Assembly: GCA_016783745.1 (NCBI GenBank)
Contig: JADHVZ010000004.1
Coordinates: 3,544 to 67,543, forward strand
Reading direction: 5' to 3'
Length of the DNA: 64,000 nt
DNA from: Candidatus Omnitrophota bacterium
GTDB taxonomy: Bacteria > Omnitrophota > Gorgyraeia > JAHIPI01
Below the pieces are notes generated by a model. The model ran no database searches. It worked only from the letters and a program-made list of their open reading frames with translations, and was not told where the DNA came from. This document shows, piece by piece, positions 15,087-36,521 of the stretch (position 1 is its first letter; the number at the start of each line of letters is the position of its first letter). Position numbers and translations under genes: made by a program.

Positions 15087-15087
15087 A

Positions 15088-18653: not shown

Positions 18654-19664
18654 ATGATGAATACCGCCCGAAATCACAAGATCTACGTTATCGCGGAAAT
18701 CGGCAGCAACCATAACGGCGATTTCGCCAAGGCCAGGGAGATGGTGTCTGCCGCGAAAGAAGCAGGCGCCGATGCCGTAAAATTCCAGACTTATATACCC
18801 GAAAAACTGTGCCACTCCTCTCAAGCACCGCTCCCCATCTTAAAAGATAGATATAAGAATCAGCAGGAACGGTTCCGAGAACTCACATTCACGGAACCGC
18901 AATACCGCGAACTGAAGGCCCTTGCCGATAAGCTGGGAATAGATTTTGCCTCCTCGCCTTTTGATATTGAGAGCGCGCTTATGCTGGAGCCCCTTGTGTC
19001 TTTTTACAAAATCGCCTCGGGAGATATAAACAATGTACAGCTTATAGATAGGGTCGCAAGGACGGGTAAGTCAGTTCTCATATCTACCGGCATGTCGACG
19101 CTTGAAGAGGTTGACAGGATCTATCAAAGTGTTGACCATAATAAACTGGCAATACTTCACTGTGTCTCGTTATATCCGGCGGACGGGGATAAGCTTAATT
19201 TGATGACCATACCCTTCCTAAAAGAGAGATATCCTGATATTGCGATCGGATATTCAGACCACCATCCGGGTATCGATGCCTGTTTATATGCGGCGGTTCT
19301 GGGGGCACAGATTATCGAGAAGCATTTTACGTTTGATAAGTCTATTTGCTACGGAGACCATGCGCTATCGGCAGATTACCGGGATATGCGCCGAATGGCG
19401 AGGGAGATAAAAGCGATTTCCGGGATGCTCGGCCAAAAAGATTTTCGTCACGGCGAAGAGGAATTACAAAACCGGCGTTTCTTCAGACGCGGATTGTACA
19501 CTGCCCGCGAATTGAATGCGGGCGAGAAGATTCGGCCAAGCGATATCGTGCCGCTCCGGCCGCCTGCTTCAATCAATATTTACGAGATTGAAAAAGTGAT
19601 AGGCATGACCGTGAAGCGCCCTTTAGAAAAAGAGACACCCATCTCATGGGAAGACCTGGAATAG
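18654..19664 (+). CDS. NeuB-family (non)ulosonic acid synthase, paralog 3, with SAF domain
   Basis: 'KIYVIAEIGSNHNGDFAKAREMVSAAKEAGADAVKFQTY...ISTGMSTLEEVDRIY...SDHHPG' plus a C-terminal SAF-like 'RGLYTARELNAGEKIRPSDIVPLRP'. Confidence 0.85.
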   Translation: MMNTARNHKIYVIAEIGSNHNGDFAKAREMVSAAKEAGADAVKFQTYIPEKLCHSSQAPLPILKDRYKNQQERFRELTFTEPQYRELKALADKLGIDFASSPFDIESALMLEPLVSFYKIASGDINNVQLIDRVARTGKSVLISTGMSTLEEVDRIYQSVDHNKLAILHCVSLYPADGDKLNLMTIPFLKERYPDIAIGYSDHHPGIDACLYAAVLGAQIIEKHFTFDKSICYGDHALSADYRDMRRMAREIKAISGMLGQKDFRHGEEELQNRRFFRRGLYTARELNAGEKIRPSDIVPLRPPASINIYEIEKVIGMTVKRPLEKETPISWEDLE

Positions 19665-20953: not shown

Positions 20954-22089
20954 AAAGAACAATAAATTGGTGAATGATCTGGAATTGCTCAAGATCATGT
21001 TGGGAGATATGCAGAATGCCCCGGGACTTTTCCAGCCCACAAGCTTCTGGAGATACCATGAAAGATATCATGTTCCGTGGCTTAAGAGTTCCGATTTGAA
21101 TAATTTCAGGAGCATAGCCGGCGGCGGAAACAGTAGTTTCGGAGCCAATTTTTACGGGCACTATCCCTTTGATCCTGTGACGATCGAAAAAATGCCTCAC
21201 TCCGTACGGGCGATGGGGAATATCATTAATAGGTTTTCGCGGCATATAAAGCCCCTCATGTTTTTTAACCCGGAGATCGTCTCTCTACTGTACCGCCGGC
21301 TGCGAAAGACACAGAAGATGCTTGAAAATCTTGCGTATTATTCTGCCGGATTGATCGACGGAGACGGGACCTTGGGCAGGATCGAAGATTCGGGATTGGG
21401 AAATCCGACCGATCTGATAATTATCGACGGGAAAAAATATACCAATGTGTTTTTAAAGTATTTTTCGCAATACGTTTACGCGAAGAAGTTTATCGATTTT
21501 AACGGCATAAAAAGCATTTTTGGAGATCGGCTCCGGATACGGCGGACAGGCAGAGATGTTATTAAAGGCACACCCGCATCTTAATATTTGCGTTATTGAT
21601 ATTCCTCCGCAGTTGTATGTTACCGAGCAATACCTAAGCGCCTGTTTCAAAGGACAAGTGTGCGGCTATAGAGCCTTGAGGGGGATGAATAAGATAGGGC
21701 GTGATATTTTTGATAAATACAGCATTGTAGCCCTGGCGCCGTGGCAGTTAGACTATATTGACGGTGTATCCTTCGATTTATTCTGGAATTCCGCGTCTTT
21801 TCAGGAGATGGAGCCCCCGGTAGTGGAAAATTACGCAAAATATATACAAAAGATGGTTTCAAAATGGCTTTATCTGCGAAACCAGCCGGATGGAAGTTCT
21901 ATAGTGGAGGGCCGGAAGAAAAACGTGGAGGCGCAAACCCGCATGGAGCACTATGTGAAGTTTTTCTCTGATTTTGAGCTTGTTGACCGAAGTCCTTCAA
22001 AAGTGATTCCTAATATTGCCTCAGGCGAAAGATATGACAACATGATTTTCAGGCGGAAGGCGCCTAAGGGCGGGGAGCGCGAAACATGA
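20940..22089 (+). CDS. putative sugar O-methyltransferase (class I SAM MTase) interrupted by an apparent +1 frameshift near 21511-21522
   Basis: ORF-track pieces 20940-21584 and 21520-22089 lie in adjacent frames. The second opens right after an in-frame TAA at 21508 and begins with MTase motif I 'FLEIGSGYGGQAEMLLKAHP'. The first encodes an N-terminal domain ('FQPTSFWRYHERYHVPW...NFYGHYPF') of the kind seen in sialic-acid-cluster O-methyltransferases. The junction sits in A5/T5 homopolymers (ggcataaaaagcatttttgg). Confidence 0.55.
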
Positions 22090-22583
22090 TCGATAAGGAT
22101 CAGTTAGTTTTAAGGTTGAAAAAAATCAAGCTTGTAGCCCTGGATGTGGATGGCGTGCTTACGGACGGGCGGGTTTATTTAGATGCCGACGGCCGGGAAA
22201 CACGGGCCTTTAATTTCAAGGATATCATGGGCATATCCCGCCTAAAAAAAAGAGGCGTCAAGGTAGCGTTAATATCGGGAGAAAAAAACGCTGTTATTGA
22301 CCGGTTCTGCCGGAAGCTCGGCATAGAAAAAAACTATCAGAACTGCAGGGAAAAGGATAAGGCTATTGATGAGCTCACGGATTATTACAAGCTGAAGCCA
22401 GAGGATATATGTTTCATAGGTGATGATATTAATGATATCCCCGTTTTTAAGAAGGTAGGCCTGGCCGTAGGCGTGTCCAACGGCTGGGAAGGTATAATGG
22501 GCAGCGCGCATATAGTTACGAAAAATAAAGGGGGAAACGGCGCTGTCAGGGAGATTTGCGAGTTAATCATAGCTAACATATGA
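22086..22583 (+). CDS. HAD-superfamily KdsC/YrbI-type phosphatase (3-deoxy-ulosonate 8/9-phosphate phosphatase)
   Basis: 'LVALDVDGVLTDGRVYLDADGRE...FIGDDINDIPVFKKVGLAVGVSNG' carries HAD motif I DxDGVLTDG and motif IV GDDxND at KdsC-like size (165 aa). Confidence 0.8.
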   Translation: MIDKDQLVLRLKKIKLVALDVDGVLTDGRVYLDADGRETRAFNFKDIMGISRLKKRGVKVALISGEKNAVIDRFCRKLGIEKNYQNCREKDKAIDELTDYYKLKPEDICFIGDDINDIPVFKKVGLAVGVSNGWEGIMGSAHIVTKNKGGNGAVREICELIIANI

Positions 22584-22593
22584 GGATCGCGTT

Positions 22594-23382
22594 ATGAAAG
22601 TTTTGTGTGTGATTCCTGCCCGCGGCGGCTCGAAGACTGTGCCAAAAAAGAACCTGGTGGAAATAGGCGGAAAATCGCTGCTTTATTACGCGGCGGAATG
22701 CGTGAAAAACTCGAAGGTTATTGAGCGGACAGTGCTTTCAACTGATTCCGGCGAGATAGCCGCGCAGGCCCGGTCTTTGGGGCTGGAAGTCCCGTTTATG
22801 CGGTCGGCGGAATTGGCCACGGACGAGACTACGGATTGGCCCGTTTTCAACCATTGCATGGAATGGCTGAAAGATAATGATAGATATGTTCCTGATATTG
22901 TTGTCCATTTGCGGGTGACTTCACCTTTTGCTTTTAAAATGCACGGTGGACCGACAGGCGATTTTTCACGTAATTGGATATGCGTCAAAAGAGAAGAGAT
23001 CATAGATGGGGTTGTAAATATGCTGGCTGAGAGGCCGGAACTAGATTCTGTGAGGACTGTAGAACTTGTCCGGAGTACGCCTTATAAAATGTGGCGTATG
23101 GAGGGAGGAGTAATAAAGCCTGTTATCCGGACAAGCGAAAAAGAGATCTATAATCAGCCCAGGCAAAAGATACCGCCGGCCTACCTCCAGAACGGGTATG
23201 TGGACGCGGCGCGTTATTCAACTATTATGCGAAAGAAATCAATGAACGGCGAAACAATAGGCGGCTACGTGCTCGATTGCGATTATTTTGTGGACATTGA
23301 CGGATATGCCGATATTGAACTGGGAGATCTGATCTACCGCCAGCTTATGGAGGAGGAGAGCGTAGATGAGTATAAAAGATAA
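22594..23382 (+). CDS. NeuA-like cytidylyltransferase, paralog 3
   Basis: 'VLCVIPARGGSKTVPKKNLVEIGGKSLLYYAAE'. Confidence 0.8.
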   Translation: MKVLCVIPARGGSKTVPKKNLVEIGGKSLLYYAAECVKNSKVIERTVLSTDSGEIAAQARSLGLEVPFMRSAELATDETTDWPVFNHCMEWLKDNDRYVPDIVVHLRVTSPFAFKMHGGPTGDFSRNWICVKREEIIDGVVNMLAERPELDSVRTVELVRSTPYKMWRMEGGVIKPVIRTSEKEIYNQPRQKIPPAYLQNGYVDAARYSTIMRKKSMNGETIGGYVLDCDYFVDIDGYADIELGDLIYRQLMEEESVDEYKR

Positions 23383-24193
23383 GTTTGATATAAAAGGCAG
23401 GGTCGCGGTTATAACGGGCGGCGCGGGGCTATTGGGCAAAGAATTCGCCAGGACATTGCTTGAGTACGGAGGAAAGGTCGTTATGGCGGATATCGCGCGC
23501 GATAGAGGCGCGGCCGCGCTTAAAGAGATCGGGCAAGGATCTAAAGGCGACATTGTCTATGAGTATGTCGATGTCAGCTCCAAAGATTCGGTTGAGAAGA
23601 TGGCGCAGTCCGTTAAAAAGCGTTTCGGAAAGGTGGACATATTGATCAATTGCGCGGCGCTCGATCCTAAATTCGAAGCCGGCGATATGGAAAAACACGG
23701 CTATGCATTCGAAGATTATCCGTTGGAGTCATGGGAAAGAGCGGTATCCGTCAATCTAACGGGCGCCTTTTTATGCTGTCAGGTGATCGGCCGGATCATG
23801 ATATCTCAGGAGAAAGGCGTTATTGTGAACGTCGCCTCTGAGATCGGTATGATCGCTCCTGACAATAGGATCTATATTAAAAAGGCGGAACCGGAAAAGA
23901 AAAGATTTAAACCGATCGACTATCCTGTCACAAAAGCGGCGCTTATACATCTTTCGAGGTATCTCGCGTCTTATTGGGGAGATAAGAATATTCGAGTCAA
24001 TACGCTGACACCGGCAACTGTTTATACAGATCAGGATGATGAGTTGGTGAAAAACATCTCTTACAGGGCGATCCTCGGCAGGATGTCCGATAAAAACGAA
24101 TTCTGCGGGGCGCTGATATTCTTGGTCTCTGACGCCTCAAGTTATATGACGGGCGCGAACCTCGTAGTGGACGGCGGCAGGACGGCTTGGTAG
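23366..24193 (+). CDS. short-chain dehydrogenase/reductase (classical SDR)
   Basis: 'VAVITGGAGLLGKEFARTLLEYGGKVVMAD' is TGxxxGxG; 'NCAALDP' and 'YPVTKAAL' give the YxxxK dyad. Confidence 0.8.
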   Translation: MSIKDKFDIKGRVAVITGGAGLLGKEFARTLLEYGGKVVMADIARDRGAAALKEIGQGSKGDIVYEYVDVSSKDSVEKMAQSVKKRFGKVDILINCAALDPKFEAGDMEKHGYAFEDYPLESWERAVSVNLTGAFLCCQVIGRIMISQEKGVIVNVASEIGMIAPDNRIYIKKAEPEKKRFKPIDYPVTKAALIHLSRYLASYWGDKNIRVNTLTPATVYTDQDDELVKNISYRAILGRMSDKNEFCGALIFLVSDASSYMTGANLVVDGGRTAW

Positions 24194-24219
24194 GGATTAC
24201 GTAGGGAAATGCCGGGTTA

Positions 24220-24350
24220 GGTTTACGGTTTTCGGTTCACGGTTTACGGAAAATCCAATGGGATTTAAAAAACCGTACACCGTAAACCGTACACCGTAAA
24301 CCGTACACCGTAAACCGTACACCGTAAACCGTACACCGTAAACCGTAAGT
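24220..24350. repeat. heptad-periodic repeat block: 30-bp element GGTTTACGGTTTTCGGTTCACGGTTTACGG (24220-24249), small hairpin AAATCCaatgGGATTT (24252-24267), then 14-bp tandem repeat CCGTACACCGTAAA x about 5.5 (24272-24350)
   Basis: Read directly from the sequence. The 30-mer is the reverse complement of the tandem-repeat consensus (CCGTAAACC...), so the two can pair. It ends 12 nt before ATG 24363. Confidence 0.85.
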
Positions 24351-24362
24351 GAGATATTCAAA

Positions 24363-25286
24363 ATGAACAACATAACAATCGGCATCATGCAGGGTCGGCT
24401 GATGCCTCCGGTCAACGGTCAGCTGCAGGCATTTCCGGGAAAGGGGTGGGAGAAGGAATTTTCCCGGGCCGGCCTGTGCGGGTTGGACACGATCGAATTC
24501 ATTTTTGACACGGATGAAGAATATAATCCGCTTCACGATGACGAAAAAATCGAACGGATCCGGGAATTATCGAGGGATCATAGGATCAAGGTATCCTCCG
24601 TATGCGCCGATTACTTTATGAGGAGAGGCTTCCTGCGGGTGGCTGACGAGGAGCGTAAGAAAAATGTGGAAATGCTCCGGAAGCTGACTTTAAGATGCGA
24701 TAAAATCGGTATCCGGTATATCGTAATACCGTTTGTGGATGAATCCGAAATAAAAACGGCTGAAGAGCTGTATATAGTACGGGACGCATTGATCGAAGCG
24801 CTTGACGGCACAAAAGGGTGCGATGTCTATTATGCGCTTGAGATGTCGCTTCCGGCCGAGAGAATCGTCCCGTTTCTGAAGGAGGCCGGCCACCCTCGGT
24901 TGAAGATCAATTATGATACGGGAAACTCAACGGCCCTCGGTTATGATCTAGCCTCCGAAATAGAGCAGCTGGCTCCGTGGATCGTGGATGTGCATATTAA
25001 GGACAGGAAGGTGGGCGGAGGAAGTTGTATCCTCGGAGAAGGCGATACTGACTTTGACGGTGCGTTTAGGGCGTTGGCCGGGATCGGCTTCCGCGGCCCG
25101 TATATCATCCAGGCGCAGCGCACCGGAAACGAGGCCAAACTCGCAAAGCGCTATCTGGGGTTCGTGAAAAATATGATCTCTCGCTCGCGCAGAGCATACA
25201 GCTCTCATTCTGTCTCCAAGGGGAGTTTCCCCTTAACCGTAAACCGTGAACCGAAAACCGATAACCGAAAACCGAGAACCGAATAA
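24363..25286 (+). CDS. sugar phosphate isomerase/epimerase (xylose-isomerase-like TIM barrel)
   Basis: 'GLDTIEFIFDTDEE...YIVIPFVDESE...DVHIKDRK' with metal-binding E/D/H spacing is typical of the AP-endonuclease-2/xylose-isomerase-like TIM-barrel family. The C-terminal 20 aa are encoded by the downstream heptad repeat. Confidence 0.6.
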   Translation: MNNITIGIMQGRLMPPVNGQLQAFPGKGWEKEFSRAGLCGLDTIEFIFDTDEEYNPLHDDEKIERIRELSRDHRIKVSSVCADYFMRRGFLRVADEERKKNVEMLRKLTLRCDKIGIRYIVIPFVDESEIKTAEELYIVRDALIEALDGTKGCDVYYALEMSLPAERIVPFLKEAGHPRLKINYDTGNSTALGYDLASEIEQLAPWIVDVHIKDRKVGGGSCILGEGDTDFDGAFRALAGIGFRGPYIIQAQRTGNEAKLAKRYLGFVKNMISRSRRAYSSHSVSKGSFPLTVNREPKTDNRKPRTE

Positions 25287-25288
25287 GG
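25220..25288. repeat. hairpin GGGGAgttTCCCC (25220-25232) followed by heptad repeat CCGTAAACCGTGAACCGAAAACCGATAACCGAAAACCGAGAACCGAA, an inverted copy of the 24220-24249 element
   Basis: 25238-25261 equals the reverse complement of 24226-24249 over 24/24 nt (28/30 over the full element). Confidence 0.8.
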
Positions 25289-25293
25289 ATAAT

Positions 25294-26331
25294 ATGAAGA
25301 TACTAATGGCAGGGCTGGGGTCTATCGGCCAGCGGCACCTGCGGAATATACTGTCTATTTTAGGGGAAGATGCTGAGATAAGCGCATACAGGGTCCGTAA
25401 GGGGCAGGAGGTGTTTACCGATAAGCTGTCAGTTTTAAAAGGCGCCCGGCTGGAGGAAGAATATAAATTCAGGTCTTTTGATTCTCTGGACGAGGCGCTT
25501 GCCGGTTCTCCTGAAGCGGTGTTTATTTGCAATCCGACCAGTATGCATATACCGGTCGCGCTGGCCGCCGCGAAAAAGGGCTGCCACCTCTTTATCGAAA
25601 AACCGCTTTCGCATGATCTCGAGGGAATTGAAGAGCTTGAGTCTATTGTCAGGGAGAAGGGCCTGACGGCGCTGGTGGGTTTCCAGCTGCGTTTCCACCC
25701 GTGCTATTTGAAATTAAAAGAGCTGATAGCGGAGGAAAGGGCCGGCAATATTTTATCGGCCTTCATAGAGGTAGGCGAATTTCTCCCCGCATGGCATAAA
25801 TGGGAGGACTACCGAAGGATGTATGCCTCACGAAAAGACCTGGGCGGAGGCGTTGTACTGACTCAGATACACGAAATCGACTACGCGATGGACATTTTCG
25901 GAGCGCCGCAGCGCATATGCGCTGCCGGCGGACATTTGAGCTCCCTCGATATCGACGTCGAAGATACCGTTGACGCGCTCATGGAATTTTCGCACAAAGG
26001 GAGGAGGCTGCCGGTCAGTTTTCATATGGATTATCTGCAGAGGCCCCCAAGGCGGGGATGCAGGATAATCGGGGAAGACGCGATTATCGCAATGGATTTG
26101 GTTGCGCAGAATGTAGTTATAATCAATAGTGACGGCAAAGAGGAGAGGTTCGAATACGGTGACTTTTCGAGAAATCAGCTATTTATAGATGAAATAAAAC
26201 ATTTCTTCGCATGTATCCGGGCCGAGGAGAAGCCGCTGGTCGACATATCAACGGCGCTTCAAGGGATGAAGACAGCCATGGCCGTCAAGGAATCGATGAA
26301 TAAGAGAAAAAAGGTATTATTGAAATTTTAA
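25294..26331 (+). CDS. Gfo/Idh/MocA-family NAD(P)-dependent sugar oxidoreductase (start reassigned to ATG 25294; the ORF-track N-terminus is translation of the heptad repeat)
   Basis: 'MKILMAGLGSIGQRHLRN' N-terminal Rossmann, then '...CHLFIEKPLSHDLEGIEEL', the EKP motif of the Gfo/Idh/MocA family. Confidence 0.75.
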   Translation: MKILMAGLGSIGQRHLRNILSILGEDAEISAYRVRKGQEVFTDKLSVLKGARLEEEYKFRSFDSLDEALAGSPEAVFICNPTSMHIPVALAAAKKGCHLFIEKPLSHDLEGIEELESIVREKGLTALVGFQLRFHPCYLKLKELIAEERAGNILSAFIEVGEFLPAWHKWEDYRRMYASRKDLGGGVVLTQIHEIDYAMDIFGAPQRICAAGGHLSSLDIDVEDTVDALMEFSHKGRRLPVSFHMDYLQRPPRRGCRIIGEDAIIAMDLVAQNVVIINSDGKEERFEYGDFSRNQLFIDEIKHFFACIRAEEKPLVDISTALQGMKTAMAVKESMNKRKKVLLKF

Positions 26332-26344
26332 AAAAGGAGGCATT

Positions 26345-27214
26345 ATGAAGAGGGAAGTGAAGCTCGGCGATACATGGGTGGGGAGCGGACATCCATGTTT
26401 CTTTACCGCAGAGATAGGGATCAATCACAACGGCGATATAGCGATAGCAAAGAAACTTATTGATGTGGCAATACTTACGGGATGCAATGCCGTAAAGTTT
26501 CAGAAAAGGACGATCGAGGTCGTGTATTCGCCGGAAGATCTTGACCGTCCGAGGGAAAATCCGTTCGGGCCGACCAACAGGGATTTAAAGAGAAACCTCG
26601 AATTCGGAAAGAAAGAATATGAACAGATCGATAGGTATTGCAAAGAAAAAGGTATTATGTGGTATGCCTCCTGCTGGGATGAGCAATCGATCGACTTCAT
26701 GGAGGAGTTTGATCCGCCTTGTTATAAAATAGCTTCAGCTTCGCTTACCGATGATGACCTTCTTCGTCATACCCGCAAAACCGGCAAGCCGATAATACTA
26801 TCTACGGGCATGTCGTCTATGGGTCAGATCTACCACGCCGTAGAAGTGCTTGGAGAAGAAGGCCTAGTCATCATGCATTGCACTAGCACGTATCCGTCAA
26901 AACCCGATGAGTTAAACCTGAGGATGATAGAGACGCTTCATAGAGAGTTTAAGTGTCCTATCGGTTACTCCGGACACGAAGTCGGCCTGATGACTACTTT
27001 GGCCGCAAAGGTATTAGGGGCATCTATGCTTGAGCGCCATATAACGTTGGACCGCGCGATGTGGGGAAGCGACCAGGCGGCCTCGGTAGAATCTCACGGA
27101 ATGATGAGGTTGATCAAAGACATCCGTTCCGTGGAATCGGCGCACGGTGACGGCGAGAAGATCATTTATGAGAGCGAGATGCCTATTATGAAGAAGCTGC
27201 GAAGAAAAGGATGA
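26345..27214 (+). CDS. NeuB-family synthase paralog 4, short form lacking the C-terminal SAF domain
   Basis: 'CFFTAEIGINHNGDIAIAKKLIDVAILTGCNAVKFQKRT...ILSTGMSSMGQIYHAV...CTSTYPSKPDELNL...SGHEVG'. Only 289 aa, ending about 50 aa before where the SAF domain would start. RBS AAAAGGAGG precedes it. Confidence 0.75.
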   Translation: MKREVKLGDTWVGSGHPCFFTAEIGINHNGDIAIAKKLIDVAILTGCNAVKFQKRTIEVVYSPEDLDRPRENPFGPTNRDLKRNLEFGKKEYEQIDRYCKEKGIMWYASCWDEQSIDFMEEFDPPCYKIASASLTDDDLLRHTRKTGKPIILSTGMSSMGQIYHAVEVLGEEGLVIMHCTSTYPSKPDELNLRMIETLHREFKCPIGYSGHEVGLMTTLAAKVLGASMLERHITLDRAMWGSDQAASVESHGMMRLIKDIRSVESAHGDGEKIIYESEMPIMKKLRRKG

Positions 27215-28764
27215 GTTTTGTGAAAGATAAGACGATTTTAATCGCGCTGAATCACGGCATATCGGTCAGGAACATCCTGCAGACGGATATATTCCGCATT
27301 TTACAGAAAAGCGGCATAAAGATCGTCATCCTGACGCCGAATGCTGAAAATGAATCCTTCCGGCGGATGTATAAATCGGATAACGTCTATTTTGAAAAAT
27401 TGAACTGGGATAAGTATGATGCCTATTTTCGGCGTTCTAGATTGCAGCCGAGGCTGAAGTGTGTCCGGTGGTTTACCCTAAACGGGCGCTACGATCTTAC
27501 AACCATTTCCGACTGGTATGAAAAGGTGCATAAAAAACAAAGGAACTCCTCGACGGCTCGCCATAAAATCGTGAATTTAGTTGAGGATAGTTTGATCCGT
27601 TTGCTTAGATCAAGCAGTATCTTAAGAAAGATATTTATTCGCCTCGAATCATTATTTTTCTCACCCCCATACCATAGAGATATTTTTTTAAGGCATAAAC
27701 CAGATTGGGTCCTTGTAACGAGCTTAGGCTTCTTTGACTATGATCAGTATATTATGAGGGAAGCTAAAAAGCACGGAGCCAAGCTTATATCTTATATTTT
27801 AAGCTGGGACAATACGTCAACACGCGGCATCGGCGCAGAATTTCCGGACGAGGTAATCGCCTGGACGGACATTATGAAGAAAGAGCTTATACAACTTCAC
27901 GATATTAAACCGGAAAAGATTTTTGTGGGAGGGGTAGCCCATTACGACCATTATTACCACAGGGAATCGATTTATGAGCGAAGGGATTTTTTGTCGAGAT
28001 TCAATCTATCCGAAGGGAGAAAACTCATATTTTTCGCCACAAAATCTCCGACAGGCTTTCCCTGGAACCCGGACATCGTAGAGATAATCGCCGAAGCTAT
28101 ACAAAACGATGTATTTGCATATCCCTGCCAATTACTGATCCGGCTCCACCCTATTCATTTTCGCCGCGCCGGAGGGGAACTGAGATTTAAAGATTTTTTC
28201 GACCGCTATGATAAGATCTCGCGTAGATATAAGCATGTGTCCTTCAATATACCGCATATAAGATCAAAGGAAATAGCCTTTGATCTGCCGAAGAGCGAAT
28301 TATATGATGTGGCGTCGCTGCTTCATTACTCTGATGTGATGCTGAACGTATTTTCTACGATGAATCTTGAAGCGAGCATATTCGATACGCCTATTATCAA
28401 TGTGTGCTTTGAAGGTGAAAGGGCCGGGCAATATGGCAATACACCCAGGGTCAATATCAACATCGACGAAATGCAGACTCATAACCAGCGGATTGTGAAG
28501 ACCGGCGGCATAAGGCTTGCGCGCAGTAAAAGAGAATTAGTAGATCTGATCAATATGTATCTTAAGAATCCTGAAATGGACATGGAGGGCAGGGCGAAAA
28601 TCGTCAGGGATGAATGCGGTCCTAATCAGGGCCGCGCAGGATTTATCATAGGAAAGCATATATCAAAACTGCTGGGCAGCGAAACAGGAGTGGGCGAAAT
28701 AAATGCAGACGGATTACCCGTAAGGAAAGAAGAGAGATGTGCCGATGCTTTTAACAAAAGATAA
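27211..28764 (+). CDS. GT-B-like protein with HP motif (KpsC/KpsS/TagF-like), paralog 3 of candidate ulosonic-acid transferases
   Basis: 517 aa. 'LLIRLHPIHFR' is an HP motif, and 'HYSDVMLNVFSTMNLEASIFDTPIINV' is a GT-B C-terminal loop, as in 10162-11733. Confidence 0.35.
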   Translation: MSFVKDKTILIALNHGISVRNILQTDIFRILQKSGIKIVILTPNAENESFRRMYKSDNVYFEKLNWDKYDAYFRRSRLQPRLKCVRWFTLNGRYDLTTISDWYEKVHKKQRNSSTARHKIVNLVEDSLIRLLRSSSILRKIFIRLESLFFSPPYHRDIFLRHKPDWVLVTSLGFFDYDQYIMREAKKHGAKLISYILSWDNTSTRGIGAEFPDEVIAWTDIMKKELIQLHDIKPEKIFVGGVAHYDHYYHRESIYERRDFLSRFNLSEGRKLIFFATKSPTGFPWNPDIVEIIAEAIQNDVFAYPCQLLIRLHPIHFRRAGGELRFKDFFDRYDKISRRYKHVSFNIPHIRSKEIAFDLPKSELYDVASLLHYSDVMLNVFSTMNLEASIFDTPIINVCFEGERAGQYGNTPRVNINIDEMQTHNQRIVKTGGIRLARSKRELVDLINMYLKNPEMDMEGRAKIVRDECGPNQGRAGFIIGKHISKLLGSETGVGEINADGLPVRKEERCADAFNKR

Positions 28765-29827
28765 CGCGGTCAACTTGGTTTGCCCCCGCTGCAAAAACCC
28801 GCTTGCGGAAACAGGCGATGTATTACAGTGCGGGTCGTGCGGAGTTGATTGGAAAGTCGAAAACGGTGTACCCATCCTGACGGAATCGTCAAAATGGTAT
28901 CCCAAGGAACATATGACAAAAGAGCAATTTGAGGAATTGCTTGGGGATATAGATTCGAAAGGATGGGAAGAGGCTATCAAGGTTGCAACGGGCTCTATGC
29001 GAGACTCGAAGGGTTTTAATATCCTGGCTTTTAACGAATCAAGGAGAGACCTTTCGTCTATACTCCCGCTTAATAAAGAATCCGTCGTGCTTGATTACGG
29101 ATGCGGGATGGGGGGTATTAGCTTCAATCTCGCCAAGTCGTGCGGTCATATCATCGCCGCCGACCAAAGCGCGTTTCGGGCACAATTCATACGTGCCCGC
29201 TGTAAAAATTCAGGGGTGCCCAACGTTACGCCGGTGTGCGCCGGAAATTCACGCTATCTGCCTTTTTCCGATAATAGTTTTGACGCGGTAATCATGAACG
29301 GTGTTTTGGAATGGATGCCGCTTTCCATGGAGGGAGACCCCCGCGACATTCAAATGTCGGCTCTTAAAGAGGCCGGCAGGGTCCTTAAAAAAGGGGGCAT
29401 CATCTACCTGGCGATAGAAAACAGGTTCGGCTACAGATATCTGTTTTTCGGAAAGGGCGATAGCCATAATCAAAAAAAGAAAAAGATACGCTATATTACA
29501 CTTTTACCGCGGGTTATCGCGAATCTTTATTCGAAGTTAAGGATCAAGGCGCCTTACAGATGCTATCTCTATTCGTACGGAGGCTACAGAAAAATGCTAA
29601 TAGATTCGGGTTTTAGAAAATGCGTTTTCTATTTCCCGTATCCGGACCATAATCATCTTAAGTATATCATTCCGGTCGATAACCGGAAGGCAAGTTCTTC
29701 TTTCCTGAATTATATTTTAAATGGGGCGTCTTTATCCGCAAAGGAAAGATCCGCTATTTCATTTTTGAGTTTTACGGGGCTCCTGAAGCATTTCGCGCAG
29801 GACTATTTAATTATCGCCACGAGGTGA
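28739..29827 (+). CDS. class I SAM methyltransferase with N-terminal Trm112-like CxxC...CxxC zinc ribbon
   Basis: 'CPRCKNPL...CGSCG'; 'VLDYGCGMGGISFNLAKSCGHIIAADQS' is motif I; 'FDAVIMNGVLEWMP'. Confidence 0.75.
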   Translation: MPMLLTKDNAVNLVCPRCKNPLAETGDVLQCGSCGVDWKVENGVPILTESSKWYPKEHMTKEQFEELLGDIDSKGWEEAIKVATGSMRDSKGFNILAFNESRRDLSSILPLNKESVVLDYGCGMGGISFNLAKSCGHIIAADQSAFRAQFIRARCKNSGVPNVTPVCAGNSRYLPFSDNSFDAVIMNGVLEWMPLSMEGDPRDIQMSALKEAGRVLKKGGIIYLAIENRFGYRYLFFGKGDSHNQKKKKIRYITLLPRVIANLYSKLRIKAPYRCYLYSYGGYRKMLIDSGFRKCVFYFPYPDHNHLKYIIPVDNRKASSSFLNYILNGASLSAKERSAISFLSFTGLLKHFAQDYLIIATR

Positions 29828-30813: not shown

Positions 30814-31845
30814 ATGATGGCATATTTCAAAGGGCAAAAGCGCAGGTTATCGTTTATGGAAAAGTATATGACAGGCTTGAGGCCTGTCGATTGCCCCGTA
30901 TGCGGGAGCGGTAAGTCTACGGTGCTGGGGGCCAGAAGCAGGGGCGGGCTCAGTATAAATTCGGTGCTATGCGCCAACTGTTCGCTGGTGTACCTTAATC
31001 CCAAGCCCTTGCCGGAAAAATACCACGAGTTTTACGCCTCCGGAGACTACAGGCGTTTTTTGAATATTGTCAAGGGAGCAAAAACCGGCGATGATATCAA
31101 CAATTTCTTTACCGAAAAAAAGTTTATTGATAGAAAAGAATATGGCGCGCAAATAGCCAGAAAGTATTTCAGCAATATTTTGGTAAAGGACGACTTATAT
31201 TTCGATTTCGGATGCGATTCCGGCGGCATTATGGCGGGCGTGCGCGATGAAACAGGCTGCAGGATCATGGGTAATGAGCCCTCCAGGCTATGCGCGGATT
31301 TTATCCGCGAAAGACTTGGGGTCCGGATACTTTGCTGTGGCATGGAAGGCATGTGTGATTCCGATAAGGAAATATATAAAGGCAAGGCGAAAGCCGCATC
31401 ACTCATCGGCGTACTGGAACATGTCAATGACCCGATCGCATGTTTGAATATCGCCTATGGGGTACTCTCGGACGGGGGATTCCTCTACGTTGAGAGCCTC
31501 GATATCCTTAAACGCATGGAAAGGAATAAGGAGTCGGTTGAAGATGCGGCAACAATAGATCACCAATATTATTTCCATGAAGACGTGTATAAATATATGC
31601 TGCGATCCTGCAATTTTGAAGTTAAGAGATTCGATTATGACGAAAAAGGCAAGATCATGAGGGTGTTGGCTCAAAAGGTCGGGCCTGAATCGCCTAAAAA
31701 TAGATTTGAAGCAGCAGAAATAGTAGATAGGATCTCGCGGCTGAATAGCGAGGCAGCGCGCTATCAAGCGGGTATTTTCAGAAGGGCCGGAAAGAAGGCG
31801 GCACAAGCGGCAAGAAAGGTGCTAAAGTGGAAGTCACCCTCATAA
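30814..31845 (+). CDS. class I SAM methyltransferase with N-terminal zinc ribbon
   Basis: 'CPVCGSG...CANCS'; 'YFDFGCDSGGIMAGV' is motif I; 'ASLIGVLEHVNDP'. Confidence 0.7.
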   Translation: MMAYFKGQKRRLSFMEKYMTGLRPVDCPVCGSGKSTVLGARSRGGLSINSVLCANCSLVYLNPKPLPEKYHEFYASGDYRRFLNIVKGAKTGDDINNFFTEKKFIDRKEYGAQIARKYFSNILVKDDLYFDFGCDSGGIMAGVRDETGCRIMGNEPSRLCADFIRERLGVRILCCGMEGMCDSDKEIYKGKAKAASLIGVLEHVNDPIACLNIAYGVLSDGGFLYVESLDILKRMERNKESVEDAATIDHQYYFHEDVYKYMLRSCNFEVKRFDYDEKGKIMRVLAQKVGPESPKNRFEAAEIVDRISRLNSEAARYQAGIFRRAGKKAAQAARKVLKWKSPS

Positions 31846-33296
31846 ACGTAGGGGACATTATCGCGTACGGGCTCAGGTGCGTCTCCTCAAACCTGAAAAA
31901 GCACGGAATCGGTACGAGGATGATATTTATTCCCCCAAGATTTGCCGATATTTCGCACAAGAATCTCTTTGCCGGTATTGCGGAAGTAGCCGGAGATTCC
32001 GCCTTTATAGGCATATCGCTTATGGCGGGACAGTATAAGAGCGCCGTTTATTTGACCGAAAATTTAAAAAAAATAACGGATGCCCCGGTTTACTGGGGAG
32101 GGATACATCCGACCGTTTGCCCGGATGAAAGCATAAAGCACGCTGACGCTATCTGCATAGGGGAAGGCGAGGAAACCGCGGTTGCCCTGGCAAAGAGAAT
32201 GGGATCCGGAGGGGGTTTGGAAGGTCTGGACGGCATATGGTTCAAAAAGGACGGAGGGGTCGTAAAGAACCGCCAGAGACGCATCCCGGAGGATCTTGAT
32301 TCATTACCGCCTCCGGACTATAGTTTCGATACTCACTATGTGTTCGATTTTGATAAGGGGATCATGGCGCGTATGGACGATCATTATTTCTTTAAACACA
32401 GAGGGGACAGGTACACCACCCTTCCTACGCGCGGGTGCGCGATGAATTGCTCCTATTGCGTCAATGCGTATTTGCATGATATGTATCCGGGATCGAATAG
32501 ATTGAGAAGCAAAAGCGTCGATACGCTTATCTTGGAGTTAAAATGGGTAAAGGACAATCTGAAATTTATCCGGCAAATAAACTTCTATGACGATGATTTT
32601 CTTCGGTTACCTGTGGAATATATCCGTGATTTTGTCGATCGTTACAAGCGGGAGATCGATATGCCTCTGGTCTTGACGGGTATAAGCCCCGCCAATTTCA
32701 ACATGGAAAAACTGGAATTGATCAGCCGGAAGATCAGATTGGATAAATTACGGATGGGGGTTCAATCCGGCTCAGAGAGGACCAGGAAGGAAATATTCAA
32801 TCGGCCGCATTCCGATAAACAATTGCTTAGTGTGATCCAACAGTTATCCCGGGTAAGAAGAAAGGGCCGTATTCTCTACGACGTCATTTTAGATGTTCCT
32901 TGGGAGAATGAAAAAGATAAAATCGATACCTTCCGCTTTTTGATGAAGATCCCGAGGCCCTTTTGGCTCATTGTCTATTACCTGACATTCTATCCCGGTA
33001 CAGCGCTTTATGAAAGGGCACAGAAGGAAGGCGTATTGAATGATATCAATAACGGTTATTCCCAAAGGTATCAACGCCCGCGCACAAAGGACAAGTTAAA
33101 TAAGATCATTACCTTGACAGATAAGATGCCGCGGTGGTTTCTATGGCTTTTATTCTATACGAGAAAGGCCGCTTTAATTTCAGATGTTTTGATTTTTTCC
33201 GGGGATATGGTCATCGTTATCCATAATGCTTTACGGCGGATACTTACGGGAATAGCCCTAACCAAGAGAAGATTGAGTTTTAGACGGGCACAATGA
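31827..33296 (+). CDS. B12-binding (class B) radical SAM enzyme, paralog 1
   Basis: N-terminal cobalamin-binding-like Rossmann region 'VTLINVGDIIAYGLRCVSSNLKKHG', then 'TRGCAMNCSYCVNA' CxxxCxxC. Confidence 0.8.
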   Translation: MEVTLINVGDIIAYGLRCVSSNLKKHGIGTRMIFIPPRFADISHKNLFAGIAEVAGDSAFIGISLMAGQYKSAVYLTENLKKITDAPVYWGGIHPTVCPDESIKHADAICIGEGEETAVALAKRMGSGGGLEGLDGIWFKKDGGVVKNRQRRIPEDLDSLPPPDYSFDTHYVFDFDKGIMARMDDHYFFKHRGDRYTTLPTRGCAMNCSYCVNAYLHDMYPGSNRLRSKSVDTLILELKWVKDNLKFIRQINFYDDDFLRLPVEYIRDFVDRYKREIDMPLVLTGISPANFNMEKLELISRKIRLDKLRMGVQSGSERTRKEIFNRPHSDKQLLSVIQQLSRVRRKGRILYDVILDVPWENEKDKIDTFRFLMKIPRPFWLIVYYLTFYPGTALYERAQKEGVLNDINNGYSQRYQRPRTKDKLNKIITLTDKMPRWFLWLLFYTRKAALISDVLIFSGDMVIVIHNALRRILTGIALTKRRLSFRRAQ

Positions 33297-34744
33297 AGAA
33301 GGTAGTATTGACCAATATAGGCTGTTCTTCTGCCGGCGCAAAGCCGATCGCGACATCAATACTATCGGCCGTGCTGAAAAAAAGAGGCCATAGCGTCTCT
33401 CTATTTGATACCACATTTATGGATTTGGGGTTTATGCTCGACGGCGAGATATCCGACAGGCTGAAGATGTTTAAGCCCGTTGACTGGAAGGGGCGCGGTC
33501 TGGTAAGAGACAAAAATGTCGATGCCAAAGAGGAATTTATAAGATTCCTGGATAGGGAAAAGCCGGATGTCATCGCTGCAAGCGCTTTTAGCGATATGTA
33601 CAGGCATACAATGGAATTTTTGAGGATTGCCAAGGAAAGATACGGTATCCCCGTTATTATCGGTGGCATTCATGCCACACTGCTGCCCGATGAAGTCATA
33701 GCTGAAGATTGCGTAGACGCCCTTTGTGTCGGAGAGGGAGAAGATGCCCTGGTCGAGTATGTAGACTCACTTGACGGTAAAAAAGCGACAAGGACCGATA
33801 TAAAAAATCTATGGATCAAGCGCGATGGGTCCGTATATAAAAATTCCCTCCGCGAGCTTAAAGAACTTGATTCCCTCCCATTTATGGATTACTCCATTTA
33901 CGACGAAAGACAATTCCTGCGCCCGTTCGAAGGAAGGATATTACGAAGCGGCGACTACCAGGATAAACGCGGCTGCCCGCGCAGGTGCACCTATTGCGCA
34001 TATGCGGTGATAAATAAGGATATATACCCCGGGGGGAGGATCAAGTTTTATTCAGCGGAGAGATTTGCGGAAGAGGCAAAATACCTGAAGCAGGCTTTTG
34101 ACCTGGAATTCTTCAAAATATTCTCGGAGGATATATTCTTGAGGCCGGAGGATGATCTGGCGAGAATGTCGGAATTGTATTCAAAAAAAGTGGGGCTGCC
34201 TTTTACGACCAGCGCGCACCCGCTTTCCGTTACGGAAAAGAAGGCAGGGTTGTTAAAAAAGATGAATTGTGTCAGCGTTTCCGTGGCGCTGGAATGCGGC
34301 AACGCCCAATACCGCGAAAACATGCTGGGGCGTAAATATACAAACGGGCAGTTTGCCAGGAGCATTAAAATTTTACAGGAAGCCGGCATACGGGCGGTCT
34401 CTTTAAATATGATAGGCCTGCCGGGAGAGACGAGAAAGATGATATTCGAGACCATCGAGGTCAATAGAAAGGTAAAGCCGGATTTCGCGGACTTCGGATG
34501 TTTTTTTCCGTTTCGGGGAACGCCCCTGGGGGACACAGCGGTCAGGGACGGGTTAGCGTATCCCGGCGAAATAAAAAGATCCAGGAGCGACCACGGAAAA
34601 TCAATACTCCACATGCCTCACCTAGGGGCAGAGGAGATCAACGGCATAATGAAGATGCATCATTTTTATCTGCGTTATCCTAAGGCCCTGTGGCCGTTTT
34701 TCAGATTGCGCGAAAGGGATAATTTTTTTAAGGTAAAGGCGTAA
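33293..34744 (+). CDS. B12-binding (class B) radical SAM enzyme, paralog 2
   Basis: 'VVLTNIGCSSAGAKPIATSILSAVLKKRGH...IIGGIHATL', then 'RGCPRRCTYCAYA'. Confidence 0.8.
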   Translation: MKKVVLTNIGCSSAGAKPIATSILSAVLKKRGHSVSLFDTTFMDLGFMLDGEISDRLKMFKPVDWKGRGLVRDKNVDAKEEFIRFLDREKPDVIAASAFSDMYRHTMEFLRIAKERYGIPVIIGGIHATLLPDEVIAEDCVDALCVGEGEDALVEYVDSLDGKKATRTDIKNLWIKRDGSVYKNSLRELKELDSLPFMDYSIYDERQFLRPFEGRILRSGDYQDKRGCPRRCTYCAYAVINKDIYPGGRIKFYSAERFAEEAKYLKQAFDLEFFKIFSEDIFLRPEDDLARMSELYSKKVGLPFTTSAHPLSVTEKKAGLLKKMNCVSVSVALECGNAQYRENMLGRKYTNGQFARSIKILQEAGIRAVSLNMIGLPGETRKMIFETIEVNRKVKPDFADFGCFFPFRGTPLGDTAVRDGLAYPGEIKRSRSDHGKSILHMPHLGAEEINGIMKMHHFYLRYPKALWPFFRLRERDNFFKVKA

Positions 34745-34748: not shown

Positions 34749-36521
34749 ATGGCGATAGGCGAAAAAATAAGATTCTTGTGGAAGGCTATAAGGGTATATA
34801 AATATTTCGCCCTTTTTCTCTTTTTCATCATCCTGGCAGCCGCGCTGACGGAAACTATCGGCATCGGTATGGTCATGCCGTTCCTGGAAGTTGTTTTCGA
34901 TCCGGGCAGTTCGTCGGGTTCTGTCAGGTTCATGGAGCCTATTTTGAGTCGTTTTCCGGATGCGCACAGGCTTATGGTCATAGGCATATTACTTATGGGG
35001 TTGATCCTGATAAAAAATCTACTTATCATATTCAGGATCGGCCTTTCCACACATTTTGTTTTTCGCTTCAGAAGATTATGGCAGTGCGCGGTTATGGAGA
35101 AATACATGTATGCGGAATACTCTTTTCTCCTATCTCATAAACAAGGGTATCTGTTAAACAATCTTTTAATAGAACCTGGCAGAGCGGCAAAATCACTGCA
35201 GCAACTAATAGAGTTTTCCTCAAAGGCGATTTTAGCTTTTTCTCTTTATTGCCTGTTGATCATAGTAAGCTGGAAAGCTACTTTAAGCATTACTTTTGTG
35301 GGTCTTCTCATAGTCCTCCTGCTGAGTAAACCTACTTATAATTACGCTATCGGAGTCGGACGAAAAAAAGTATCACTTTCGCAGGATATAACTGCCATGG
35401 GCGCGGAGAATATCAGCGCGATCCGTCAGATAAAGATATTTTCTCTTGAAAACGATACTTGCCGCAGATTCAGGGAAAAGCTGGAGGACATCATTCGCGT
35501 AATGACGAAGTTCAACGTGATCCGCAGATTACCCAATCCAATCGCGGAGACACTCTTTATAGCAGGAGTAGTGTTGACACTCTTATACCTTAATTATTTT
35601 ACCTTAGTTCCACTGATGACCATAGCTCCGGTTATAGGGCTTTTTGTTGTCACTTCCCAGAGGTTTTTTCCGGTCGTTTCGCAATTGTTTGCCGAGCGGA
35701 TGAACATCCTTACGTTTATTCCTTCCCTGAAGGTGGCGTATGGTTTATATGATTCGAAAATACGAAACGAAGAATTGAAGACAGGGGAGGCTATTGACTC
35801 TATCAAGAGAGGCATTGAATTTAAAAACGTTTTTTTTACGTATAAAGGCTCACGGCCGCTTTTTGAGGATTTAAGCCTAATCATTCCGAAGGGAAAGACA
35901 ACAGCGATCGTAGGCCCGTCCGGTTCGGGCAAATCGACCATGGTCGACCTGTTGACCGGTTTTTTTAAGAAGCAGAACGGGGAGATATTAATAAACGGCA
36001 TAGACATCGATAGGATAAACCTGCGGTCATGCCGCAGGCTCATAGGATATGTCAGCCAGGATACGTTTCTCTTTAACGCTACGGTGAGAGAAAATATTAT
36101 TGCCGGAAGACCGGACGCGCCGGAGCGGGAGATGGTAATGGCCGCGAAGCAGGCTCACGCGGATGAGTTTATACGCCGGCTGCCGCAGGGATATGATACG
36201 GTGCTGGGTGACAGGGGGTTGAAGGTCTCCGGGGGGCAGCGCCAGAGGATCGCCATAGCAAGAGTTCTTATACGCAACCCGGAGGTGTTGATATTTGATG
36301 AAGCCACCAGCTCGCTTGACTCCGAATCCGAAAGGTTGATCCAGGAATCGATTGATTCGTTCGCGGGCAAAAAAACCATTATCGTCATATCTCACCGTTT
36401 CTCGACAGTGAAGAATGCCGACGTGATCTATGTTTTTGATAAAGGCCATATAGTGGAATCCGGGACATTTGAGGAGCTCGAGAAGAGTAAGGGCCGATTT
36501 TATCAGATGAATATCGTGTAA
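34749..36521 (+). CDS. ABC exporter, fused TMD-NBD half transporter (MsbA/PglK-like; candidate lipid-linked glycan flippase)
   Basis: Six predicted N-terminal TM helices. Walker A 'GPSGSGKST', signature 'LSGGQRQRIAIAR', Walker B 'LIFDEATSSLD'. Confidence 0.9.
   Translation: MAIGEKIRFLWKAIRVYKYFALFLFFIILAAALTETIGIGMVMPFLEVVFDPGSSSGSVRFMEPILSRFPDAHRLMVIGILLMGLILIKNLLIIFRIGLSTHFVFRFRRLWQCAVMEKYMYAEYSFLLSHKQGYLLNNLLIEPGRAAKSLQQLIEFSSKAILAFSLYCLLIIVSWKATLSITFVGLLIVLLLSKPTYNYAIGVGRKKVSLSQDITAMGAENISAIRQIKIFSLENDTCRRFREKLEDIIRVMTKFNVIRRLPNPIAETLFIAGVVLTLLYLNYFTLVPLMTIAPVIGLFVVTSQRFFPVVSQLFAERMNILTFIPSLKVAYGLYDSKIRNEELKTGEAIDSIKRGIEFKNVFFTYKGSRPLFEDLSLIIPKGKTTAIVGPSGSGKSTMVDLLTGFFKKQNGEILINGIDIDRINLRSCRRLIGYVSQDTFLFNATVRENIIAGRPDAPEREMVMAAKQAHADEFIRRLPQGYDTVLGDRGLKVSGGQRQRIAIARVLIRNPEVLIFDEATSSLDSESERLIQESIDSFAGKKTIIVISHRFSTVKNADVIYVFDKGHIVESGTFEELEKSKGRFYQMNIV

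Follow-up and report, generated by a model that had tools for sequence, protein, structure and literature searches.

The tandem radical SAM genes and their operon

Two adjacent genes for radical S-adenosylmethionine (SAM) enzymes, here called rSAM1 and rSAM2, were analyzed in a 64-kb stretch of contig JADHVZ010000004.1, which stems from a Candidatus Omnitrophota metagenome-assembled genome (MAG). This whole stretch is referred to as the window, and positions given without a locus number are positions of the window. A first-pass annotation had placed two B12-binding (class B) radical SAM enzymes at 31827-34744 and had read them as sugar C-methylases of a methyl-rich surface glycan. Both open reading frames (ORFs) are intact and lie exactly at these coordinates on the + strand:

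31827..33296, + strand: rSAM1, 489 aa, radical SAM enzyme of class B architecture, motif CAMNCSYC
33293..34744, + strand: rSAM2, 483 aa, radical SAM enzyme of class B architecture, motif CPRRCTYC

Proteins identical to rSAM1 and rSAM2 are deposited as MBL7070840.1 and MBL7070841.1 (Candidatus Omnitrophota MAG), and the same locus is present in the Logan assemblies of the runs SRR12042682 and ERR13325278. The window contains about 55 genes, all of which are located on the + strand, and GC skew is positive throughout; neither a tRNA nor an Rfam element was found within it. The genes next to the pair are the following:

28739..29827, + strand: SAM methyltransferase with N-terminal zinc ribbon CPRC...CGSC (Methyltransf_11, 59 bits); orthologues with 59-63% identity in the homologous loci L084 and L089
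29824..30804, + strand: APH-family (protein-kinase-like) small-molecule kinase (Pfam APH, 43 bits); orthologues with 36-37% identity in L084 and L089
30814..31845, + strand: SAM methyltransferase with N-terminal zinc ribbon CPVC...CANC (Methyltransf_23, 40 bits)
34749..36521, + strand: ATP-binding cassette (ABC) exporter with ABC_membrane and ABC_tran domains (Pfam)

The earlier description of a kinase flanked by two zinc-ribbon methyltransferases was right, as pairs of CxxC precede the methyltransferase domains at 28739 and 30814, with the APH kinase in between. In L084 and L089, the gene directly upstream of the rSAM2 orthologue is an orthologue of the second methyltransferase (56-57% identity). 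rSAM1, rSAM2 and their neighbors form one tight operon: rSAM1 starts with a GTG after AAGGTG and overlaps the end of the upstream methyltransferase gene by 19 nt, the stop codon of rSAM1 and the start codon of rSAM2 are joined in an ATGA overlap, and the exporter gene starts 4 nt past the rSAM2 stop. The exporter is a candidate flippase for a lipid-linked glycan.

Domain architecture and family assignment

Searches with hidden Markov models (HMM) bore out the predicted domains, since the B12-binding domain PF02310 (cutoff 32.1 bits) and the Radical_SAM domain PF04055 (cutoff 29.5 bits) exceed the Pfam cutoffs in both proteins, with scores that chance would not produce. In rSAM1, they cover residues 9-121 (47.0 bits) and 200-372 (51.5 bits), respectively, and in rSAM2 residues 73-156 (61.7 bits) and 226-389 (86.9 bits). 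Together with a C-terminal domain, the Rossmann B12-type domain and the radical SAM barrel give both proteins the class B architecture that had been claimed for them. The cysteines of the CxxxCxxC motif are invariant in the family alignments of rSAM1 and of rSAM2, and both families have kept the GGxH and GEGE motifs of the Rossmann domain. The two proteins are distant paralogues (27% identity, E-value 1e-28; hhalign probability 100). A hydropathy peak in the C-terminus of rSAM1 was considered as a membrane anchor and rejected as unconvincing (about 1.5 over 19 residues, with charged residues within the stretch).

The curated NCBIfam families scored were BchE, HpnJ, HpnR, PhpK, Sden_1168, TsrM-type, KedN5, the C-methyltransferases of peptides that are made ribosomally and then modified post-translationally (RiPPs), MgmA, ladderane, BzaD and AprD4. 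The best matches of rSAM1 were TIGR04013 (83.3 bits, cutoff 251) and HpnJ (73 bits, cutoff 577.6). For rSAM2, BchE (89.3 bits, cutoff 481), the ladderane enzyme (86 bits, cutoff 360), HpnJ (75 bits), PhpK (74 bits) and AprD4 (30.6 bits, cutoff 500) were obtained. A third gene for a B12-domain radical SAM enzyme, rSAM3 at 49005, matches BchE best (207.6 bits, cutoff 481). With best scores of 83-89 bits against cutoffs of 251-650, rSAM1 and rSAM2 stand outside the BchE, HpnP/HpnR and coproporphyrinogen-oxidase families, membership of which would have spoken against a role in sugar chemistry. Both fall in uncharacterised orthogroups, and as no curated methylase family was matched at its cutoff, the 'GenK/Fom3-type' label of the first-pass annotation finds no support. 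The NCBIfam scores serve here as a proxy for a phylogenetic placement relative to GenK, Fom3 and HpnP. Because no curated family cutoff was reached, methylation by either protein is a function that we infer.

These scores bear on the question of whether the pair might have nothing to do with a glycan and consist of BchE- or HpnJ-type lipid or tetrapyrrole enzymes or of RiPP methylases. BchE is indeed the top NCBIfam match of rSAM2 and rSAM3, and automatic names at the Joint Genome Institute call several homologues 'anaerobic magnesium-protoporphyrin IX monomethyl ester cyclase'. Such labels were rejected as over-annotation, since the BchE scores (89 and 208 bits against 481) are far below the cutoff. 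Furthermore, the pair overlaps with glycan genes in one operon, its association with NeuB and cytidine monophosphate (CMP)-transferase genes is conserved (see below), and no precursor peptide, hopanoid or chlorophyll gene was found in the 64-kb window. Functions outside glycan synthesis are thus regarded as highly improbable.

The nonulosonic acid locus

Many microbial surfaces carry nonulosonic acids, such as sialic, legionaminic and pseudaminic acid, as their outermost sugars, which govern recognition by hosts, phages and predators. The locus around the pair (60 kb) combines several pathways to such sialic-acid-like sugars. The 'methyl-rich glycan' of the first-pass annotation held to the extent that this is a surface-glycan locus rich in SAM methyltransferases; its setting is narrower, namely a nonulosonic acid locus of several pathways and not a generic methyl-rich glycan.

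Four synthases of the NeuB family are encoded at 5474, 15028, 18654 and 26345 (PF03102, 179-260 bits). All of them score below the NeuB_NnaB equivalog cutoff (216-358 bits vs. 399.65), so the assignment is at family level. Five cytidylyltransferases (CTP_transf_3) were found, of which four are separate genes (8712, 16091, 16852 and 22594) and one is fused to a glycosyltransferase of family 2 (GT2) at 12700. NeuC at 6490 and the KdsC/YrbI-type phosphatase at 22086 pass their NCBIfam cutoffs (362.6 vs. 235.9 bits, and 148.6 vs. 106.95 bits at subfamily level, respectively). A NeuB-type synthase, a CMP-sugar synthetase and precursor enzymes, which in combination mark a nonulosonic acid locus, thus occur together. 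The genes are arranged in modules, one of which lies upstream of the methyltransferase and radical SAM cassette:

22086..28764, + strand: ulosonic-acid module (Pfam), syntenic in L089 at 58-76% identity
Order within this module: KdsC/YrbI-type phosphatase 22086; CMP-transferase 22594; short-chain dehydrogenase/reductase (SDR) 23366; xylose-isomerase-like triosephosphate isomerase (TIM) barrel protein 24363; GFO/IDH/MocA oxidoreductase 25246; short NeuB without SAF domain 26345; BFO_1060-like putative transferase 27211
5474..19664, + strand: three further nonulosonic acid modules with NeuB paralogues, NeuC, CMP-transferases and radical SAM/SPASM proteins at 14091 and 17592 (Pfam, NCBIfam)

Candidate transferases for the ulosonic acid are a Capsule_synth-like protein at 10162 and the BFO_1060-like protein at 27211, whose domain match (49.9 bits) is below the NCBIfam cutoff. 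Further glycan genes of the locus encode Wzz, an ABC exporter, a GT-C/PMT_2 enzyme and glycosyltransferases of the families GT2 and GT4, besides a DegT aminotransferase, AsnB, an acyltransferase, a formyltransferase and a deacetylase.

Genomic neighborhoods of the rSAM2 orthogroup

Hundreds of full-length homologues exist for both rSAM1 and rSAM2. For rSAM2, 647 word-indexed homologues were retrieved, none of which is informatively named; sources with a name are MAGs of Elusimicrobia, Candidatus Portnoybacteria, Omnitrophica, Verrucomicrobiae and Rhodospirillales. When 1.84 billion cluster representatives were searched exhaustively with phmmer, rSAM2 had 30,027 matches at an E-value ≤ 1e-3 and 1,785 at ≤ 1e-30. 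Since only a single full-length representative reached ≥ 50% identity, the rSAM2 orthogroup is small within a huge superfamily.

The neighborhood set comprised 13 loci with an rSAM2 homologue at 39-72% identity; a metagenome scan yielded 8 loci. As control, 80 reference-genome loci were used whose relatives had ≤ 34% identity among the matches listed (generic GEGE pattern). NeuB was present within the fetched flanks of 11 of the 13 loci (L083, L085, L089, L090-92, L095, L098, L099, L100 and L101); it was not seen in L084, where the sequence ends 3 kb upstream, and in L097. Only one control locus had NeuB (L003, from a Chlorobium MAG), and it harbors the closest relative among the 80. For the first 11 loci, the difference (9/11 vs. 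1/80) is significant in a Fisher's Exact Test (p = 7e-10), the number of independent loci being lower than the nominal one because L090-92 are near-identical. A cytidylyltransferase gene directly adjoins the rSAM2 orthologue in four independent loci (L090-92, L095, L098 and L099), and L100 and L101 carry both NeuB and a CMP-transferase.

The closest counterparts of the window preserve larger blocks. In L089, synteny extends across the entire block 22086-34744 (36-76% identity), with rSAM1 missing. The order methyltransferase, kinase, methyltransferase, rSAM2 is preserved in L084, where it is followed by the DegT, SPASM, AsnB, dehydratase, GT2 and B12 genes found downstream in the window; rSAM1, the ABC exporter and the SQD1-like gene are absent from L084. 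ABC genes related to the exporter occur in L089 and L099. In L098, an rSAM2-like gene is followed by a CMP-transferase, NeuB, NeuC and a second B12 radical SAM gene, and B12 radical SAM genes are found repeatedly in related glycan loci (L083-L085, L087, L097 and L098). In marine and other lineages (L090-92, L095, L099 and L101), a compact cassette is repeated:

Members: enolase-superfamily protein, 2-hydroxyacid dehydrogenase, short cytidylyltransferase, rSAM2 orthologue, short NeuB, GT2
Positions: L095, 7475-13477; L101, 8222-15526; L099, 4577-12597

This cassette may encode all steps towards an undescribed sugar acid in its CMP-activated form, with 2-hydroxyacid dehydrogenase, cytidylyltransferase, radical SAM enzyme and NeuB as its conserved minimal set. 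Judged by these neighborhoods, rSAM2 is the conserved member of the pair and belongs to an uncharacterised orthogroup that accompanies NeuB and CMP-transferase genes in several uncultivated lineages. Since this group of enzymes is found almost only beside genes for nine-carbon sugars, rSAM2 probably performs a new radical chemistry on a sialic-acid-like sugar.

Relatives of rSAM1

For rSAM1, close orthologues were limited to identities of 93% and 62%; next comes a large family (about 40% identity) which is common in Omnitrophota. Three of these more distant relatives were inspected: one is located beside a SIS-domain gene (L086), one in a locus with several paralogues (L087) and one between GT9 heptosyltransferase genes (L088). 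The rSAM1 family thus seems to recur in glycan loci (two of the three neighborhoods examined) and not to be specific for nonulosonic acids. rSAM1 itself is a lineage-specific addition, and the tandem arrangement is peculiar to this lineage.

As a separate observation, L087, a metagenome contig of the European Nucleotide Archive, encodes five B12 radical SAM paralogues within 14 kb (1286-14892). Between them lie genes for methyltransferases, a SPASM enzyme, a nucleotidyltransferase, a GHMP kinase and glycosyltransferases.

Proposed pathway

We consider it likely that rSAM1 and rSAM2 are tailoring enzymes of a nonulosonic/ulosonic acid glycan. In the reading we prefer, both are enzymes of class B architecture which modify the sialic-acid-like ulosonic sugar made by the adjacent module, most probably by C-methylation; for this reading as a whole, we put the chance slightly below even. 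C-methylation taken by itself is given somewhat less than an even chance.

The pathway would proceed as follows. A sugar phosphate would be prepared by the SDR, TIM-barrel and GFO/IDH/MocA enzymes and condensed with phosphoenolpyruvate by the NeuB-type enzyme, after which the KdsC-type phosphatase would take off the phosphate and the CMP-transferase would activate the acid. At the [4Fe-4S] cluster held by the CxxxCxxC motif, SAM would be cleaved reductively to yield the 5'-deoxyadenosyl radical. In rSAM2, an unactivated carbon of the sugar acid, which would be free or (more likely) CMP-activated, would lose a hydrogen atom to this radical. The CMP-activated form is favored by analogy, because Fom3, which methylates a CMP-activated substrate, acts at that stage. 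The substrate radical would most probably be quenched by a methyl group from methylcobalamin bound in the N-terminal Rossmann domain, resulting in C-methylation. A second radical modification would probably be performed by rSAM1, and conventional methyl and phosphate groups would be added by the zinc-ribbon methyltransferases and the kinase. Finally, the BFO_1060-like protein would transfer the sugar and the ABC exporter would flip the lipid-linked intermediate. Beyond the window, the rSAM2 orthogroup could be an unrecognised family whose members functionalise C-H bonds of CMP-activated nonulosonic or ulosonic acids by radical chemistry (C-methylation, deoxygenation or rearrangement), a proposal to which we give somewhat less than an even chance.

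Evidence for the reaction type

Among the class B enzymes characterised so far, methylases form the majority, and several of these act on sugars, namely GenK, GenD1, Fms7 and MoeK5 (PMC12931638). AlphaFold (AF2) models were confident for both rSAM2 (predicted local distance difference test, pLDDT, 94; predicted template modelling score, pTM, 0.91) and rSAM1 (pLDDT 85, pTM 0.84), and both overlay the cobalamin domains of TsrM, TokK, CysS and OxsB. In Foldseek searches against the PDB, rSAM2 matched TsrM (8.6e-20) and AprD4 (1.7e-19), then MgmA, CysS, OxsB and TokK, and rSAM1 matched OxsB (3.5e-19), then MgmA, TsrM, CysS, TokK and AprD4. The order within this class B set does not discriminate between the enzymes (E-values from 1e-15 to 1e-20), and family profiles searched against PDB sequences separate the candidates better.

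Several points weigh against the preferred reading. The evidence for function is guilt by association from metagenomic contigs. None of rSAM1, rSAM2 and rSAM3 reaches the cutoff of a curated NCBIfam class B family, and neither a cobalamin riboswitch nor a cobalamin gene was found within the 64-kb window. A C-methylated nonulosonic acid is not reported in the literature searched, where the sole match for nonulosonic together with C-methyl was an unrelated exopolysaccharide paper. Two further points concern AprD4, with which the rSAM2 model has its highest TM-score (0.70/0.74) and the rSAM2 family profile its strongest match (E-value 1.3e-26, above any methylase). The last one concerns the residue beneath the corrin. 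Radical methylases put a hydrophobic residue at this position, e.g., Trp76 of TokK, and the lower axial site is hydrophilic in members that do not methylate by radical chemistry (Arg69 of TsrM; Asn186 of OxsB, with water) (PMC12931638). In the HMM alignment, TokK Trp76 and the Trp of CysS stand opposite Asp101 in rSAM2, which is invariant, and opposite Gly68 in rSAM1, a position held by Asn across its family. The register of this loop is uncertain: F99, M102 and M66 are hydrophobic residues nearby, and Asn186 of OxsB aligns two positions earlier. Read as it stands, the alignment does not favor a TokK-like methylase.

The likeness to AprD4 suggests a different reaction. rSAM2, and possibly rSAM1, would be a cobalamin-independent radical dehydratase acting on a vicinal diol of the sugar, and an NAD(P)H oxidoreductase would then reduce the resulting ketone to give a deoxy-ulosonic acid. 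AprD4 is the best solved-structure match of rSAM2 by single sequence (4e-9) as well as by family profile and TM-score; its substrate is a sugar, and its B12-like Rossmann domain holds no cobalamin (PMC12931638). The invariant, non-hydrophobic Asp at the lower axial equivalent is in line with this. Oxidoreductase genes (GFO/IDH/MocA, 2-hydroxyacid dehydrogenase or SDR) accompany rSAM2 orthologues in L083, L085, L095, L099, L100 and L101; the candidate reductase would be the SDR at 23366 or one of the recurring GFO/IDH/MocA genes. The profile match to AprD4, however, is confined to the radical SAM core and the C-terminal part (residues 222-455), and the NCBIfam model of AprD4 gives 30.6 bits where 500 are needed. 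In addition, AprD4 has the cluster motif CX3CX3C, whereas rSAM2 has the canonical CX3CX2C. The N-terminal domain of rSAM2 passes PF02310 (61.7 vs. 32.1 bits), and the true cobalamin domains of TokK, CysS, MgmA and OxsB can be aligned with it: the profile matches to MgmA (1e-14), CysS (1e-13), TokK (2e-13) and OxsB (4e-11) reach into the Rossmann domain, a further match being TsrM (4e-16). On balance, an AprD4-like dehydration is judged unlikely.

A Pfam match to the B12-binding domain is insufficient as proof of cobalamin binding, because AprD4 and ArsL carry related domains without cobalamin; both are located inside the class B similarity network and yet bind none (PMC12931638). For rSAM1 and rSAM2, the analysis shows the genes with their domains and fold, the structure of the operon and the conservation of the context; we infer cobalamin binding, the substrate and the reaction type.

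If cobalamin is bound, it might serve as electron sink and not as methyl donor, so that the sugar would be rearranged or its ring contracted by radical chemistry, as in OxsB or as proposed for HpnJ. OxsB is the top Foldseek match of rSAM1 and HpnJ is among the top three NCBIfam matches of rSAM1, rSAM2 and rSAM3, and the hydrophilic lower-axial-equivalent positions resemble those of OxsB and TsrM. These indications are offset by the low HpnJ scores (73-161 bits against a cutoff of 577.6) and by the structural matches to OxsB, TsrM, CysS and TokK, which are inseparable by rank. Moreover, such chemistries are rare among the characterised class B members (PMC12931638), and we regard this possibility as improbable. 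C-methylation by cobalamin-dependent tailoring enzymes is kept as the preferred reading.

The third B12 gene and the SPASM genes

Of the seven radical SAM genes in the locus, four belong to the SPASM type and three have a B12 domain. The third B12 gene, announced in the first-pass annotation at 49005, exists with both domains, but is interrupted by an in-frame TAG at 50163-50165:

49005..50435, + strand: rSAM3, third B12-domain radical SAM gene, amber-interrupted, adjoining a GT2 gene (48125-49057)

Up to the TAG (49005-50165), the ORF encodes 386 aa with B12-binding (83.1 bits) and Radical_SAM (100 bits) domains and the motif CPFQCTFC; the frame runs on to a TGA at 50433-50435, which would give 476 aa when read through. 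Orthologues in L083, L084 and L085 have 479 aa and are likewise located beside a GT2 gene. The TAG stands for a conserved Tyr, from which it differs by a single base (FNLFVP*PGCELWD in the window vs. FNLFVPYPGCDLYD in the L083 orthologue). Recoding of TAG was ruled out, since TAG terminates ten other genes of the window, so this codon is either a nonsense mutation or a base error. Conservation remains high over the 90 codons downstream, as would be expected from strain variation, a base error or a nonsense mutation of very recent date.

The four radical SAM/SPASM proteins of the glycan locus are encoded at 14091-15086, 17592-18626, 39186-40115 and 40134-41111. One of them matches the 'spiro-SPASM' family below the cutoff (113.6 bits). 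Genes of this type adjoin CMP-transferase or NeuB genes in the window as well as in L085, L097 and L100, and they may code for NeoN/BtrN-like epimerases or dehydrogenases of sugars.

Further features of the window

Six SAM methyltransferases had been counted in the first-pass annotation. Five are intact (7673, 9449, 28739, 30814 and 42029, the last one fused to an ATP-grasp domain), and the sixth is split by a frameshift (20940-21584 and 21520-22089). The two overlapping ORFs of 214 and 189 aa at 20940-22089 look like one methyltransferase of about 400 aa with a frameshift near 21515, the second piece opening with the SAM motif LEIGSGYGG.

Two fusions are unusual, namely that of GT2 with a cytidylyltransferase domain (12700-14094) and that of an ATP-grasp ligase with a SAM methyltransferase (42029-43819). 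The GT2/CTP_transf_3 fusion was found again beside NeuB in L083 and L085.

The first gene of the window (99-3104) encodes a protein of 1001 aa with He_PIG, Big_9, cadherin-like, PKD, LVIVD and LamG-like domains and is followed by genes for Wzz and tetratricopeptide repeat (TPR) proteins. Its product is a candidate surface protein and possibly an acceptor of the glycan.

A UDP-sulfoquinovose-synthase-like protein (36583-38061; 429.5 bits vs. a cutoff of 575), an ATP sulfurylase (53783-54916) and a sulfatase-fold protein (56546-57715) may indicate that one sugar of the same glycan is sulfonated or sulfated. The glycan operon ends (50429-53780) with an odd pair, a GT-C/PMT_2 glycosyltransferase of 710 aa followed by a prenyltransferase alpha-alpha toroid protein.

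Significance and comparison with known systems

A full-text literature search yielded no paper in which radical SAM enzymes are connected with nonulosonic acids and none joining cobalamin-dependent radical SAM enzymes with capsular polysaccharide, and a preprint on Omnitrophota genomes does not discuss such loci. The statistically supported link between rSAM2 and the synthesis of sialic-acid-like sugars thus appears unreported in the literature searched. The novelty lies in a class B clade that is so far uncharacterised and whose substrate class would be new; the gene architecture itself is ordinary.

To our knowledge, all tailoring of nonulosonic acids described so far is N-acylation, O-acylation or O/N-methylation. 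If our reading is right, radical chemistry would add a new layer of structural diversity and create sialic-acid-like sugars with an undescribed carbon skeleton, which could help to explain unassigned nonulosonic acid masses in environmental surveys and provide catalysts for carbon-modified sialic acid analogues. A nine-carbon surface sugar would here require cobalamin and as many as seven radical SAM enzymes, and the surface glycan of the ultra-small, probably host-dependent Omnitrophota would be tied to cobalamin supply. The rSAM2 family occurs in various uncultivated lineages, among them Omnitrophota, Elusimicrobiota and taxa of marine metagenomes.

Besides C-methylation, precedents of the class B type on sugars are the dehydration by AprD4, the ring contraction by OxsB, which acts on deoxyadenosine phosphates, and a contraction proposed for HpnJ on a glucosamine-derived hopanoid. 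AprD4 (1,2-diol dehydratase of apramycin biosynthesis, PDB 6fd2), the top profile match of the rSAM2 family, is sugar-acting and has a Rossmann-like N-terminal domain, but binds no cobalamin and has GCPYPCRFYC as its cluster motif, unlike rSAM2. TsrM, TokK, CysS, MgmA/QCMT and OxsB share with rSAM1 and rSAM2 the three-part architecture, the fold (TM-score 0.6-0.68) and the CxxxCxxC motif at an identity of just 14-18%. The substrates of the known class B structures are peptides, carbapenams, polyketide thioesters and nucleotides; none is an ulosonic acid.

Fom3 of fosfomycin biosynthesis, where a B12-domain radical SAM gene adjoins a cytidylyltransferase as in the rSAM2 loci, resembles rSAM2 in gene adjacency, and its substrate is a phosphonate as opposed to the sugar acid proposed here. 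It is listed as a Csp3-methylase (PMC12931638). The chemistry proposed for rSAM1 and rSAM2 is that of GenK, GenD1/GntE, Fms7 and MoeK5, the only documented class B sugar C-methylases (PMC12931638). Whereas those enzymes modify aminoglycoside or moenomycin intermediates and are encoded in antibiotic clusters of actinomycetes, rSAM1 and rSAM2 belong to a surface nonulosonic acid locus of an uncultivated phylum.

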